Shown here in pieces: positions 3,501 through 11,431 of a stretch of 17,900 nucleotides of DNA. Source of the DNA: Candidatus Jordarchaeales archaeon (GTDB lineage Archaea; Asgardarchaeota; Jordiarchaeia; Jordiarchaeales; Freyrarchaeaceae); NCBI GenBank assembly GCA_038858525.1, contig JAWCFL010000020.1:15803-33702 (forward strand), read 5' to 3'. The notes under the pieces are model-generated. The model was not told the DNA's origin. It saw only the letters and a list, made by a program, of their open reading frames with translations, and did no database searches. The translations under genes and the position numbers were made by a program. Each line of letters begins with the position of its first letter. The first letter of the stretch is position 1.

Positions 3501-4025
3501 TCAGTAGTCCACTCCCCTTCTAGCATCTATACCGGCCTTTAATGGGTGTTTCACTTCACGCATCTCAGTCACCAGGTCCGCTCTCTCAACGAGTTCTTTC
3601 GGTGCCCGTCTTCCCGTTAAAACTACGAGTAAGCAATCTTTGGCTTCCTCTAACAGCATGAGTACGTCGTCGAGTCTCAGTAAACCTACCGCTACAGCCA
3701 AGTTGATCTCGTCCAGTATTAGCACGTCAGGCTTTTTTCTCTTGAGAAGTTTCCGGGTAAAGCTTAACCCCTCTCTCGCCAACTCGTAATCTATGGGGTG
3801 GGGTTTCTCAAGGTCCACAAACTCCCTTCGTCCGAATTGGTATACCTTGCACATCGGCTTAAATCGTTTCATGGCGAGGTATTCCCCGACATCCTTCCTC
3901 CCCTTCATGAACTGAACGATAAACACGCTGAAACCATGACCTAGCGCCCTAACCGCTGCACCTATAGCTGTTAGCGTCTTCCCTTCTCCATCTCCAGTGT
4001 AAAGGTGAATGTAGCACTTTCCCAA
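3501..4025 (-). CDS. cobO: ATP:cob(I)alamin (corrinoid) adenosyltransferase, CobA/CobO/BtuR family
   Basis: Motifs IHLYTGDGEGKT (short P-loop), RALGHG, VFIVQFMKG, LILDEIN, VVLTGR, ADLVTEM..VKHP and G+DY. Probable start is TTG 4025 after GAGGTG; the ORF track start at 4064 overlaps nrdJ. Confidence 0.92.
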   Translation of the reverse strand: MGKCYIHLYTGDGEGKTLTAIGAAVRALGHGFSVFIVQFMKGRKDVGEYLAMKRFKPMCKVYQFGRREFVDLEKPHPIDYELAREGLSFTRKLLKRKKPDVLILDEINLAVAVGLLRLDDVLMLLEEAKDCLLVVLTGRRAPKELVERADLVTEMREVKHPLKAGIDARRGVDY

Positions 4026-4036
4026 GTGGCGGCACC

Positions 4037-6127
4037 TCAGAAGGGGCATACTGTAGCTGGGCAACCACCCGAGTACTCCGAGTCCGCCACCACGTATTTC
4101 TCCTCCCCTTCTCCTGGAGTTACGCCGAGGTAAAGTACCTGCTCCCTCTTGCTGCCGTAACGGTAAATTGTTATGCCCTTACACTTAAGTTTGTAGGCGA
4201 GCATAAAGACCTTCCTCACGTCTTCAAGTGTCGCGTCGTGGGGTAAGTTAACGGTCTTCGACACGGCGTTATCCACGTACTCCTGAAACGCCGCTTGCAT
4301 TTTCACATGCCACTCTGGCTCTATATCAAGCGCCGTGACGAAAACCCTTTTAACGTCATCCGGCACACCTTCAACGTTCTGAAGCGTCCCAGCCTTAGCT
4401 ATCTTCAGCATAAGCTCCCTACTGTAAAACCCTCTCTCCCTAGCCATCCTCTCGAACAAGGTGTTTACCTCCACGAGCCTTGTCCCTATCACGTTTCTGA
4501 CGAAGGCAACGGCAAATAACGGCTCTATTCCGCTCGACGTCCCAGCTATTATGCTCAACGTTCCCGTCGGGGCAATGGATGTAACAGTCGCGTTCCTCAT
4601 AGCTCCATAACTACTCGCCCATACGCTTCTCTCAAAGTTCGGGAAGGACCCTCTTTCCTCCCCAAGCTCCACAGACTTGGCTCTCGCCTCCTCCGAGATG
4701 AACCTCATAACCTTACCAGCGACCTCAAGGGCTTCCTTTGAATTGTATGGAATATCTAGCTGTATGAGCATCTCCGCGAAGCCCATTACGCCCAACCCGA
4801 TCTTCCTGTTAGCCTTCGTCATCTCCTCCACTTGAGGGAGAGGGTAATTGTTAACATCTATCACGTTATCTAAAAAGTGGACTCCCAGCCTGACCACTTC
4901 ACCCAAGTGCTCCCAGTCAATGTCGCCCTTAGAAACCATCCTGGAAAGGTTGACGGAGCCGAGGTTACACGACTCGTATGGCAGCAGGGGGACTTCGCCA
5001 CACGGGTTCGTCGCCTCTATTACCCCGAGGCTGGGCGTCGGGTTCCTCCTGTTTATCTCGTCTAGGAATACGAGCCCCGGGTCGCCGGTTCTCCAAGCGT
5101 TCGCCACCATCAAGTCGAACACGTCCCTCGCCCTGACAGTCCTGACAACCTCGCCGTTCCTCGGATTCACCAAGTCGTACTCCTCATCCCTCTCAACTTT
5201 CCTCATGAAGTCGTCGGTTACGCCAACGGAAATGTTAAAGTTCGAGAGTATGCCCTCCTCGCCTTTAGCTGTCACGAACTCCATTATGTCAGGGTGGTCA
5301 ACCCGCAGGATACCCATGTTCGCCCCCCTCCTCCTTCCCCCCTGCTTTATAACCTCGGTCGCAACATCGAATATCTTCATAAAGGAGACTGGGCCACTTG
5401 CGACGCCGCCAGTAGACCTAACTACGTCCCCCTTAGGCCTCAGCCGTGAAAAGGAGAACCCAGTGCCCCCGCCAGACTTATGTATCAGCGCCATGTACTT
5501 CAACGCGTTAAAGATCCCCTCAATGGAGTCCTCAACTGGAAGGACGAAGCAAGCCGAGAGCTGCCCAATATCAGTTCCAGCGTTCATCAGCGTAGGCGAA
5601 TTAGGCAGGAACTCGAGGCTAGTCATCGCCCTGTAGAAGCGCCTAGCTGTTTCCTCCACGTCACCTCCATACCTCTTGTCCGCCAGCGCTATGCTCCTAG
5701 CCACCCTCCCGAACATCTCAGACGGCGTCTCCACGACCCTCCCCTTCTCATCCTTCAAAAGGTACCTCTTTTCGAGCACTCTCACAGCGTTAAGGGAAAG
5801 CTTCAAGTCGTCCCAGACGCCAAGAAACTTCTTTGCCTCCCTCAGCTCCGTCCGCTGATTCCTGTAGAGTATGTACGCCTTAGCAACATCCGAAAAACCA
5901 TTCCTTATGAGGACGTCTTCAACCAAATCCTGAATATCCTCAACTCCAGGAACGCTATCGACAAACCTACTCTCAAGCCTCTCAACAACCTGCCTAGCCA
6001 GGCTCCAAGCCACTTCTCCATCTTCTCTCCCGACAGCCACGAAGGCCTTCCTGATGGCTTCAGCGATCTTCGAAGCGTCAAAATCCACTATCCTACCATC
6101 ACGCTTCCTAACCTTAGAAACAGGCAA
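4037..6127 (-). CDS. nrdJ: Class II adenosylcobalamin-dependent ribonucleotide reductase with N-terminal ATP-cone
   Basis: ATP-cone VRKRDGRIVDFDASKI; FLPNSPTLMNAG; QLSACFV; GGGTG; RRGANMG; TNPCGE (thiyl Cys); ESCNLGS; NRKIGLGVMG; IAPTGT; DNAVSKTVN; C-terminal CPATVC pair. Probable start is TTG 6127 after GGAGGAAGG; the ORF is open to GTG 6151. Confidence 0.96.
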   Translation of the reverse strand: MPVSKVRKRDGRIVDFDASKIAEAIRKAFVAVGREDGEVAWSLARQVVERLESRFVDSVPGVEDIQDLVEDVLIRNGFSDVAKAYILYRNQRTELREAKKFLGVWDDLKLSLNAVRVLEKRYLLKDEKGRVVETPSEMFGRVARSIALADKRYGGDVEETARRFYRAMTSLEFLPNSPTLMNAGTDIGQLSACFVLPVEDSIEGIFNALKYMALIHKSGGGTGFSFSRLRPKGDVVRSTGGVASGPVSFMKIFDVATEVIKQGGRRRGANMGILRVDHPDIMEFVTAKGEEGILSNFNISVGVTDDFMRKVERDEEYDLVNPRNGEVVRTVRARDVFDLMVANAWRTGDPGLVFLDEINRRNPTPSLGVIEATNPCGEVPLLPYESCNLGSVNLSRMVSKGDIDWEHLGEVVRLGVHFLDNVIDVNNYPLPQVEEMTKANRKIGLGVMGFAEMLIQLDIPYNSKEALEVAGKVMRFISEEARAKSVELGEERGSFPNFERSVWASSYGAMRNATVTSIAPTGTLSIIAGTSSGIEPLFAVAFVRNVIGTRLVEVNTLFERMARERGFYSRELMLKIAKAGTLQNVEGVPDDVKRVFVTALDIEPEWHVKMQAAFQEYVDNAVSKTVNLPHDATLEDVRKVFMLAYKLKCKGITIYRYGSKREQVLYLGVTPGEGEEKYVVADSEYSGGCPATVCPF

Positions 6128-6175
6128 CCGCCTTCCTCCACCCAAAAACACATTACCTTAAGAAAACAATAACCT

Positions 6176-7633: not shown

Positions 7634-7763
7634 AAAATTGAATGAGAAAACAGCTAAAATATTTACCCCCTAACGGGGCAGCAAATCGCAACAGCAAAAC
7701 CAATGCTGCCTCAAAAGAGTTAGGAGACAGAATTCCCAATTAACCTTTTTTGAAGAATTAAGG

Positions 7764-7849
7764 AAAAAGGGGTGTGGCGGCGCTTCACCACCAGATCACC
7801 ACCCCCAAACAAGTTCTTAACGGGGGCAGGTCATTTCATACCCCTTTTT
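7764..7849 (-). promoter_or_regulatory. Candidate eukaryote-type SECIS element in the 3' UTR of the HesB-like selenoprotein gene
   Basis: Minus strand: AUGA (7834-7831), 12 nt, AA (7818-7817), 19 nt, GA (7797-7796). Helix II is CUGCCCCC/GGGGGUGG. The outer helix AAAAAGGGGU (7849-7840) pairs with ACCCCUUUUU (7773-7764). The element starts 17 nt after the stop codon. Confidence 0.72.
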
Positions 7850-7866
7850 CAGCGTCACTTCATCTT

Positions 7867-8208
7867 TTAGCAAGTTCCTCTGAGCCTCGTAGGAGTATAA
7901 TTTGTAACACGTAGCTCCTTATACCAGTACCCTGAGTAGTCCACGTGAACCTCGTCTGGGAGGTAATCATATGCGTCCTCGTGCACGTAAACCCTCAGCC
8001 CATTTACGGGGCTTTCCTCCTTGAAGCCACCCGCCTGCAAAACCTCTTTCTCGTGGTATACTCCTGCACGCACCTCAATTCTGCTACTCCTTCAAGAATA
8101 CACTCGCTCAGCCCAGACAGCTAAAACAGGATTCCCGCCTTCCCTAGTTATTCTCTCTGCCGCAGCAGTAACATAGTCTTGGGCACTTTCGGTCAACTTG
8201 AATCTCAT
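7867..8208 (-). CDS. HesB/IscA-like (CC/Se-motif type) selenoprotein, 113 aa, Sec at codon 39 (TGA 8094-8092)
   Basis: Continuous frame from ATG 8208: MRFKLTESAQDYVTAAAERITREGGNPVLAVWAERVYS-U-RSSRIEVRAGVYHEKEVLQAGGFKEESPVNGLRVYVHEDAYDYLPDEVHVDYSGYWYKELRVTNYTPTRLRGTC*. It shows HesB-fold hallmarks (LTESA, NGLRVYV..DA..YL..V.VDY, terminal GTC) and has a SECIS-like element downstream. Confidence 0.8.
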
Positions 8209-8227
8209 ACTTATCCCCTGAAACTCC

Positions 8228-8244
8228 CTTTTCAAGCTGAAAAG
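8228..8244. repeat. Palindromic motif CTTTTCA-agc-TGAAAAG, copy 1, upstream of the selenoprotein gene
   Basis: 7-bp inverted arms with a 3-nt spacer. The core TTTCAAGCTGAAA recurs at 11216-11228. Confidence 0.45.
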
Positions 8245-8554
8245 TCTCAAGCGCTCTTCAAATACCTTTCCCTTCCCCCATGCTCTTTCCTGGACTTCCT
8301 AAGATATAAGTGAAACGTTTTCTTTAATTAGTGCTGATCCAAGCAAAGACCGTTGAGGGTGAATAAAAGTAGAAGGAGAGCCATTCTGATTCTTAAGTGG
8401 AAAGGGAGATTTCTGGCCTCCTATGGCGTACAAGGTGAATATAGAAACTGTATTGGTTCCTCGAACCTCATTTAAAAGAAAAATAAAAAATTAAGTCATA
8501 AAACCTCGTAACTCGTCTATTCAGCCTCTTTTTTGGGCAATGCATTCCTAATAA

Positions 8555-11229: not shown

Positions 11230-11431
11230 CAGTTTTTATATTTCAGTTAATTGGTCACAAGAACCTCAAATGTCTACGGACAAGTAATATCGCTGTATTG
11301 TTTTTAATGCTTAGAAAACTGGTTCTTTCTTGCATTTATCTCAATTAAACTATTTTATTCATACGAAAAATTTAATTTAAATAGGGAATTTTTATGTCTT
11401 AAACTTCATCTCACTTGACGGCTGGTGTTTA

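Follow-up and report, generated by a model that had tools for sequence, protein, structure and literature searches.

A probable selenoprotein gene with an IscA/HesB-like fold and a eukaryote-like SECIS element in a Jordarchaeales archaeon

The window analyzed here, a stretch of 17,900 nucleotides from a Candidatus Jordarchaeales archaeon (C20:15803-33702 of a 2.09-Mb assembly with 63 contigs and 92.7% completeness), carries on its minus strand a short gene that is interrupted by one in-frame TGA and followed by a putative selenocysteine insertion sequence (SECIS) in the 3′ untranslated region (3′UTR). The frame opens with ATG at 8208-8206 and runs through 38 codons (MRFKLTESAQDYVTAAAERITREGGNPVLAVWAERVYS) up to the TGA at 8094-8092; past the TGA it is unbroken for 74 codons up to the TAA at 7869-7867, the C-terminal end being RGTC. 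This layout had been described in an earlier sequence-only reading of the window and proved exact when the sequence and the frame were checked, as did the statement that the protein ends in GTC with a single C-terminal Cys, which is near-invariant among the aligned homologues. The features of the locus, with the evidence for each in parentheses, are as follows.

7867..8208, minus strand: probable selenoprotein gene, complete, 113 residues (frame, homologues over residues 1-113, ratio of nonsynonymous to synonymous differences [pN/pS], single domain in AlphaFold2)
8092..8094, minus strand: UGA codon 39, probably read as selenocysteine (Sec) (column kept as TGA; Cys in rare relatives)
7870..7872, minus strand: codon of Cys113, the final residue, in the G-x-C end; proposed partner of Sec39 (alignment; pairing inferred)
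8210..8218, minus strand: purine-rich GGGGATAAG ahead of the ATG, possible ribosome-binding site (sequence inspection)
7763..7850, minus strand: whole putative SECIS, a three-way junction starting 19 nt past the stop codon (minimum free energy fold, z -4.7 to -5.4; covariance model R1)
7840..7850, minus strand: 5′ strand of the lower stem, GAAAAAGGGGU, pairing with 7763-7773, ACCCCUUUUUC (fold; paired changes in G113 and G112)
7831..7834, minus strand: 5′ side of the SECIS core, AUGA (conservation among homologues)
7799..7830, minus strand: SECIS upper stem of 9-10 bp with 13-nt apical loop UUAAGAACUUGUU (covariation)
7795..7798, minus strand: 3′ side of the SECIS core, UGAU, with the GA of the kink-turn quartet (conservation among homologues)
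7775..7793, minus strand: second hairpin, UGGUGGUG-AAG-CGCCGCCA, 2 nt past the core and inside the lower stem (covariation)

An open reading frame (ORF) listing under translation table 11 contains two pieces of this gene only, one of 68 aa (7867-8073) and one of 52 aa (8092-8250). The claim that the gene is mis-called as a 68-aa fragment and missed by standard annotation is supported by the public protein collection, which holds it and its relatives as fragments of 62-68 aa. TGA is a normal stop in the host genome: it terminates 260 of the 870 stop-to-stop open frames of at least 300 codons (30%) and, within the window, also ends nrdJ, the Sir2 gene, a 157-aa gene of the CesT_Tir_1 type, and four other genes. 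The sequence-only reading had made this point with nrdJ, Sir2, and a gene that it called YbjN-like; the TGA stop is confirmed for all three, and the last of them is the gene here typed as CesT_Tir_1.

Homologues were sought in six-frame translations of 400 Asgard genomes. Exactly one TGA lies inside the match at each of the 14 real homologous loci (14/14), three further hits (L040-L042) being chance matches. All 13 full-length homologues have the TGA at the same column, at identities to the window protein down to 25%; they comprise the 11 full-length sequences of alignment A2 (26-83% identity to the window protein) and two sister-family genes with the TGA at the same place in their read-through translations. 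The genomes with matches were 4/4 of the organism's own family, 6/6 of the sister family (40-47% identity), and three distant ones (25-29% identity). In A2 the Sec column is invariant, and Cys113 is missing only in G112, which is frameshifted just before the C terminus. The codons beside the TGA vary synonymously between syntenic loci (TAT TCT to TAC TCC; AGG AGT to AGA AGT), and a conserved TGA column with synonymous flanking changes is, judged from the alignment, a pattern far beyond chance. Among members of the genus, codons 1-38 have a pN/pS of 0.17-0.27 and codons 40-96 one of 0.18-0.35, with pS values of 0.4-0.85; because the ratios are similar on either side of the TGA, both halves are taken to be translated in one frame under the same constraint. 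The gene order of an unknown 400-aa gene, the selenoprotein gene, Sir2, and nrdJ is shared with syntenic loci in metagenome-assembled genomes. The Asgard origin, which had been put forward as probable, is borne out by synteny with a locus of Candidatus Freyarchaeota, which we take to be the GTDB class Jordarchaeia.

A profile search run exhaustively over 1.84 billion representatives returned 27 proteins, mostly N- or C-terminal fragments; P0010 (3145 aa, matched in 13 stretches) was set aside as an unrelated repeat protein. In the full-length database entries, W takes the place of Sec. P0011 and P0020 were verified at the DNA level: the listed protein results only if TGA is translated as Trp (code-4 gene calls on short contigs), and the W in these two entries is therefore an artefact. 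P0006 corresponds to the read-through gene of G116, the sole difference being W at the TGA column, and was assigned by this identity; four other entries likewise show W. Two relatives predicted under table 11 have Cys in this region, P0030 in the exact Sec column and P0025 one column off, the latter together with a KYGC C terminus. The homologues are thus conserved on both sides of the TGA, as the sequence-only reading had anticipated, with either TGA in the column or Cys at or next to position 39, and among them there is no genuinely encoded case of Trp, Arg, or Gly, the residues that had been held to speak against selenocysteine.

The 3′UTR of the gene folds into a structure with z-scores of -4.7 and -5.4 relative to shuffled sequences. 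The three-way junction lies 258 nt downstream of the UGA, with the AUGA core located 32 nt past the stop codon, and was obtained from single-sequence folds in six of seven cases (the window gene and 5/6 diverse homologues, one of them from the U-C sister group described below). Covariance model R1 scores 60.8 bits at window positions 7772-7839. The 5′ side of the core is [A/G]UGA in 11/12 homologues, the exception being G126 with AAGA, and the 3′ side is UGAU, UAAU, or UGAC in 11/12, G126 again being the exception, with neither GA nor AA. The two hairpins are 86% paired across the 12 homologues, and compensatory changes occur at 11 of the 14 pairs, i.e., at 8/9 pairs of the upper stem and at 3/5 consensus pairs of the second hairpin. 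The covariation score for both helices was 0.587, compared with 0.32 for column shuffles (reached by 0/500) and 0.16-0.29 for slid registers. Inspection of alignment A1 by eye shows that the two strands of the lower stem change together in G113 and G112.

The published Asgard type I eSECIS-like model has the core GA...[G/A]A, with both GA and AA accepted on the 3′ side, a stem of 7-15 bp with at most two mismatches, and a loop of 8-20 nt (PMC11227280), and the lokiSECIS combines AUGA with a 9-bp stem, an A-rich loop of 11 nt, and GA or AA (PMC4989117). The window element agrees with the type I model in every respect (AUGA...GA, a stem of 10 positions with one mismatch, a 13-nt loop), and it resembles the Loki/Asgard type I elements in its AUGA core, its upper stem of 9-10 bp, the adenine-bearing 13-nt loop, the 3′ GA, and the location in the 3′UTR. 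It differs from them by the G+C-rich second hairpin inside the lower stem, which results in a three-way junction; neither a second hairpin nor a three-way junction is mentioned in the text of PMC4989117 or PMC11227280. A scan of the window with Rfam matched neither SECIS nor any other relevant family and gave weak CRISPR direct-repeat and snoRNA matches only.

The same signal was found behind other selenoprotein genes of the genome. A pattern of our own ([AG]UGA, a stem of 8-10 bp, a loop rich in A, GA or AA, and a G+C-rich hairpin behind them) matches 8 places in 4.2 Mb (both strands). Five of these are the selD 3′UTR, the 3′UTR of hdrA (the DCAIUIL gene), the hdrA-vhuD pair, the first bases of contig C35, and the window gene; the other three (C1:130059, C2:37023, and C3:107691) were set aside, as they lie without an upstream U-containing gene. 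If the condition for the second hairpin is dropped, the number of matches rises to 108, among which one further case is convincing, that of vhuD, which likewise has a hairpin, with a longer loop, behind it. The hairpin requirement thus reduces 108 matches to 8 and retains 5/6 SECIS elements. When R1 was run on the genome (150 of 591 candidates scored), the SECIS at the start of contig C35 was the only convincing one besides that of the window gene; a match on C6 looks false. The NCBIfam identities of the genes concerned are HdrA2 (869 bits), VhuD (178 bits), and SelD (N-terminal part), and in SelD the U stands in HG-U-ACK, the catalytic position. As the same SECIS design lies behind selD, hdrA, and vhuD, the genome holds several known families of selenoproteins with an in-frame TGA.

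Several further observations were made on these genes. A G+C-rich hairpin comes 2-3 nt after each of the 6/6 SECIS elements (C2:7146, C1:84244, C1:84838, C4:86089, C35:58, and window 7763-7850); among these six, the lower stem that completes a three-way junction was seen in the fold of the window gene's element. The hdrA gene at C1:82261-84222 contains two in-frame TGA codons (VCKUGVN near the N terminus and DCAIUIL) and matches the Jordarchaeia HdrA with two Sec residues that appears in the supplementary alignments of PMC11227280. The selD gene (C2:6105-7004) has, in addition to the active-site TGA, a conserved in-frame insertion of 27 nt that follows SDVY(S/N) and ends in TAA, and without these 27 nt it reads like a canonical SelD. 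All eight full-length Jordarchaeales selD genes examined contain one in-frame TAA each, which ends the insertion in the five that were read at the DNA level. The insertion contains a hairpin whose stems are wholly different between two families and still pair (GCAGCC/GGCUGC versus GUAAAUC/GAUUUAC), followed by a conserved (A/G)UGCAUAA. The insertion could be an mRNA mini-intron, a recoding signal, or the mark of a split gene. A homologue of translational GTPases of about 556 aa (G114:C1:115703-116812 and the equivalent loci in G117-G121) shows one conserved in-frame TAA in six relatives of both families (two in G118), which may represent the same phenomenon.

AlphaFold2, supplied with the 11-sequence alignment, folds both halves of the window protein into one domain with a pLDDT (predicted local distance difference test) of 90 and a pTM (predicted template modeling score) of 0.81. 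In the model, residues 27-38 and 41-52 form a β hairpin (β2-β3) with Sec39 at the turn, and confidence is low for the last three residues. The ten best matches in the PDB are IscA (1r94, 1x0g, and 1s98), SufA, DsrR, HI1723, AQ_1857, and three other IscA-like entries. The VIA-align Z-scores of these ten family structures range from 9.1 to 6.3 (9.1 to 1r94, 8.7 to SufA 2d2a, 8.4 to 1x0g, and 8.3 to DsrR 2k4z), with the next match at a Z-score of 2.5, and Foldseek gives a probability of 1.0 and template modeling (TM) scores of 0.50-0.66 for its best five matches. The matching clusters of AFDB are iron-sulfur (Fe-S) biogenesis proteins. The predicted fold is accordingly that of IscA/SufA, i.e., of A-type carriers. 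When the family was compared by hhalign with eight Asgard IscA proteins, Sec39 fell on the Cys of GGC (E = 5.5e-4, probability 30%); this weak profile alignment agrees with the earlier proposal that the UGA stands at the first redox Cys position, and it suggests that Sec39 replaces the first cluster-ligand Cys of IscA. Of the three ligand Cys residues of IscA (one central, two in the C-terminal C-x-C; GGC...CGCG in the Asgard IscA proteins used for comparison), Sec39 and one terminal Cys have conserved counterparts in the window family. The Pfam family PF01521 was matched by 6/11 members of the family (best E = 2e-4, from a table without bit scores), and NF041239 was matched weakly by 9/17 members, nearly over the full profile (best E = 6.7e-6, without a bit score). 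A six-frame search revealed no other PF01521 gene in the genome, canonical IscA is rare in Asgard archaea (4/121 genomes), and the family profiles gave no significant match against PDB sequences.

A search of the 400 Asgard genomes with NF041239 yielded 11 sub-threshold loci in other families, with 21-38 bits, which we call the sister group. One TGA is present in eight of these 11 loci, and their translations read S-U-C-G-P, or C-C in the Cys forms (e.g., L075), at the same place; the proteins end without a C-terminal Cys, and several of the loci have the same SECIS-plus-hairpin 3′UTR. Exactly two chalcogen residues are thus retained in either group, as an adjacent pair in the sister group and as Sec39 and the last residue in the window family.

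Among known systems, the HesB-like selenoproteins of TIGR01911, which occur in Methanococcales and anaerobic bacteria (PMC13188914, PMC1794560), share with the window family a length of about 100 residues, the IscA/HesB scaffold, a single Sec at the first ligand-Cys position, and the existence of Cys-containing homologues. They differ as follows: the window family has the motif U-[RGS]-[SGT]-[SV] (URSS, UGGS, USGS, UGTV) instead of UxGP, it has a conserved C-terminal G-x-C, and its SECIS is of the eukaryote-like Asgard type, as opposed to the methanococcal GAA_A or the in-frame bacterial type. NF041239 (Moor_selen_rel, with a CC/Se motif) resembles the family through the weak near-full-profile matches and through the U-C or C-C of the sister group at the same column, whereas the window family has R, G, or S in place of a Cys after Sec, its second Cys being the last residue. 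With IscA/SufA/ErpA the protein shares the fold, the alignment of Sec39 with the first ligand Cys, and a flexible C-terminal tail carrying a Cys; unlike them, it has Sec for Cys and one C-terminal Cys for C-x-C, and its gene lacks an Fe-S assembly neighborhood. DsrR of Allochromatium vinosum (2k4z), which has lost the ligand Cys residues and has a role in dsr regulation, is a similar case of an IscA fold that has departed from the chemistry of a three-Cys carrier; in contrast to DsrR, the window protein retains two chalcogen residues, one of which would be Sec.

Taken together, it is very probable that window positions 8208-7867 (minus strand) represent one gene for a 113-residue Sec protein with an IscA/HesB fold and a eukaryote-like SECIS element. 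The hidden selenoprotein postulated by the sequence-only reading is thus supported by the conserved TGA, the Cys-containing relatives, and the covarying SECIS; the HesB/IscA-like character ascribed to it holds for the fold, as seen in the AlphaFold2 model and the PDB matches, and does not extend to membership in PF01521 or TIGR01911 by score. From the comparisons described above, we infer Sec insertion at UGA 39, which would be signaled by the eukaryote-like SECIS in the 3′UTR. In the mechanism proposed, Sec39 at the hairpin turn would be the reactive center attacking the substrate, and Cys113 on the flexible C-terminal tail would fold back onto Sec39, so that a selenenylsulfide is formed and resolved; the product would be a small redox or chalcogen-transfer protein and not a classical three-Cys Fe-S carrier. 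Sec is nearly always the redox nucleophile in known selenoproteins, vicinal Cys-Sec pairs, of which the GCUG tail of thioredoxin reductase is an example, form selenenylsulfides, and the C-terminal tail of IscA reaches the first Cys. Cys113 is the only conserved chalcogen residue besides Sec39. Provided that the protein is a selenoprotein, a redox role of Sec39 and Cys113 has, by analogy with these cases, a chance that we place just short of even.

A number of results weigh against the selenoprotein reading or parts of it. Neither SepSecS nor EFSec was found in the 92.7% complete assembly with its 63 contigs, and no tRNA-Sec was found in the genome with Rfam, ARAGORN, or scans of our own. With PF01521 the window protein reaches 13 bits (E = 0.12), below the gathering threshold of 26.3 bits; none of 17 family members matches TIGR01911 at E ≤ 1, and the UxGP motif is absent; the NF041239 scores listed are 13.3-18.6 bits at a cut-off of 40, the window protein having 13.3. 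Because it stays below the cut-offs of PF01521, TIGR01911, and NF041239, the window protein is assigned to a divergent family of its own. Only two of the three ligand positions of IscA are kept. The copy in G115 has decayed (the N-terminal half is gone, one TGG has turned into TGA, and the upper hairpin of the SECIS is deleted), and since such a copy exists, the gene is dispensable in some lineages.

As to the Sec machinery, whose presence had been proposed as a check, the genome contains SelD (225 bits) and a PSTK-like gene that scores 173 bits over its full length, below the cut-off of 290 bits, with PSTK as its only strong match; EFSec, SepSecS, and tRNA-Sec are the parts missing from the assembly. 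The gene matching PF05889 ("SepSecS") proved to be SepCysS, and EF-1alpha is what the best "selB"/EFSec match represents. In the other genomes of the order, the SepSecS model is matched in 10/10 cases (nine over the cut-off and one cut fragment), EFSec is over the cut-off in 8/10, with a ninth as a cut fragment, and the two genes adjoin on one contig in six genomes. The block syntenic with contig C17 of G113 stops no more than 1.3 kb from the end of contig C18; in G113, SepSecS lies about 9 kb further on, and nothing of this stretch is present in the window's assembly. The missing SepSecS is therefore read as a probable assembly gap. With the Rfam tRNA-Sec model, no match over the cut-off was obtained in the genome and 12 relatives, not even in a complete single-contig relative, the best matches in the genome itself being tRNA-Leu genes. 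ARAGORN with and without intron mode reported 5-11 tRNAs in 2.1 Mb, none of them tRNA-Sec; two of our own scans for UCA anticodon arms yielded nothing resembling a tRNA; and Rfam detected nothing in 39 kb around the EFSec-SepSecS clusters of relatives, where a conserved 98-nt stretch proved to be an intron-bearing tRNA-Gln. A tRNA-Sec of Jordarchaeia is shown in PMC9723677. For the lineage as a whole, these genes speak for the presence of the Sec machinery.

The tRNA genes of this genome are generally hard to detect: ARAGORN reported 5 in 2.1 Mb, Rfam missed them, and they are intron-rich. The tRNA-Leu(UAA) and tRNA-Gln(CUG) genes, read by eye, have insertions at unusual positions (C12:55570-55679 and C4:83740-83833). 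Directly behind the PSTK-like gene there is an ORF of 359 aa (C18:24477-25553) without a Pfam or NCBIfam match; an Asgard-only hypothetical protein beside Sec-machinery genes is mentioned in PMC11227280, and the 359-aa ORF may be this protein.

That the UGA is a real stop, with the locus either a pseudogene or misassembled, or else made up of two separate small genes (38 and 68 residues), is in line with the treatment of the locus by gene callers and databases, with a GTG at 8073 that could start the second piece, and with the decayed copy in G115. We consider it highly improbable in view of the purifying selection on both halves, the covarying SECIS behind the gene, and the predicted single β-sheet domain, in which both halves participate with the UGA at a hairpin turn; moreover, the TGA is kept in the 13 full-length homologues, in several Asgard families, and in independent assemblies, which also speaks against the assembly error or strain-specific nonsense mutation that the sequence-only reading had named as possible refutations. 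Equally remote is the idea that the UGA is read through or reassigned to Trp, Cys, or Arg. The W in some database entries and the failure to find a tRNA-Sec would fit it, whereas the two W entries examined at the DNA level are code-4 artefacts, TGA ends 30% of the long ORFs, relatives with a standard residue at or next to the column carry Cys, and the same 3′UTR element stands behind selD, hdrA, and vhuD, with the UGA at known Sec active sites.

If the protein is a selenoprotein, two functions other than the redox role have to be considered. A true A-type carrier, in which Sec39 and Cys113 of two protomers ligate a bridging Fe-S (or iron-selenium) cluster and pass it to clients, is rather unlikely in our estimate, albeit the stronger of the two. 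The fold resembles IscA, SufA, and the [2Fe-2S]-bound IscA 1x0g, Sec39 aligns with the first ligand Cys, the C-terminal Cys sits on a tail resembling the C-x-C tail of IscA, and such a carrier would be the sole PF01521-type protein of the genome, in a phylum with few canonical IscA proteins. The absence of one of the three invariant ligand positions favors the redox role over it, as does the vicinal U-C or C-C of the sister group, which suits a redox pair better; the lineage-variable neighborhoods devoid of Fe-S assembly genes and the general use of Sec as a redox nucleophile likewise speak against a cluster carrier. Selenium trafficking, with Sec39 and Cys113 holding and passing selenide or perselenide, e.g., to SelD, or binding a soft metal, appears improbable. 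A Sec/Cys pair on a carrier-type fold would suit this function, and the full-length gene occurs only in those searched genomes that keep selenoprotein genes or Sec machinery, as the whole order does; against it, none of the loci seen is linked to selD or other Sec-machinery genes, and G115 retains the machinery and has lost the gene.

The gene neighborhoods offer no functional clue and contain no Fe-S assembly genes, and they differ between lineages: the neighbors are Sir2, nrdJ, and cobA in the window, and GDH with a metallo-β-lactamase, or Ogg, in other lineages. Within the window, a class II (B12-dependent type) ribonucleotide reductase with ATP-cone (3501-6151, minus strand) is immediately followed by an ATP:corrinoid adenosyltransferase (CobA/BtuR), a sensible pairing in terms of cofactor supply. 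A match to the CRISPR direct repeat RF01335 (25.9 bits, E = 0.14) at window positions 11284-11319 (minus strand), intergenic before a CoA-ligase gene, is probably due to chance.

Surveys list seven selenoprotein families for Asgard archaea (PMC11227280) and eleven for archaea (PMC13188914), the Asgard families being SelD, FrhA, HdrA, FrhD, a Prx-like protein, an AhpF-N homologue, and a DsbA-like protein only. Neither survey lists an IscA/HesB-like selenoprotein for Asgard archaea. The main Asgard survey does not use the term "HesB" or "IscA", be it in its main text or in any of its 87 supplementary files, and none of the papers searched brings together selenoprotein, Asgard, and IscA. We tentatively suggest, with somewhat more doubt than hope, that the window gene belongs to an Asgard-wide family of IscA-fold selenoproteins, with the U-C sister group, that these surveys do not list, and that Jordarchaeales possess a three-way-junction SECIS with an obligatory second hairpin. 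If this is true, the second hairpin could be the docking site of an archaeal SECIS-binding factor.

Asgard archaea are the closest known relatives of eukaryotes, and their Sec system, with its eukaryote-like SECIS, is used to reconstruct the origin of eukaryotic selenoprotein synthesis. To this system the gene would add a family overlooked by homology-based surveys and gene callers, and its deeply diverged, covarying set of SECIS elements can sharpen SECIS models. The second hairpin would provide a testable candidate feature for the archaeal SECIS reader, and the protein itself would represent a reuse of the IscA scaffold with a Sec/Cys pair.

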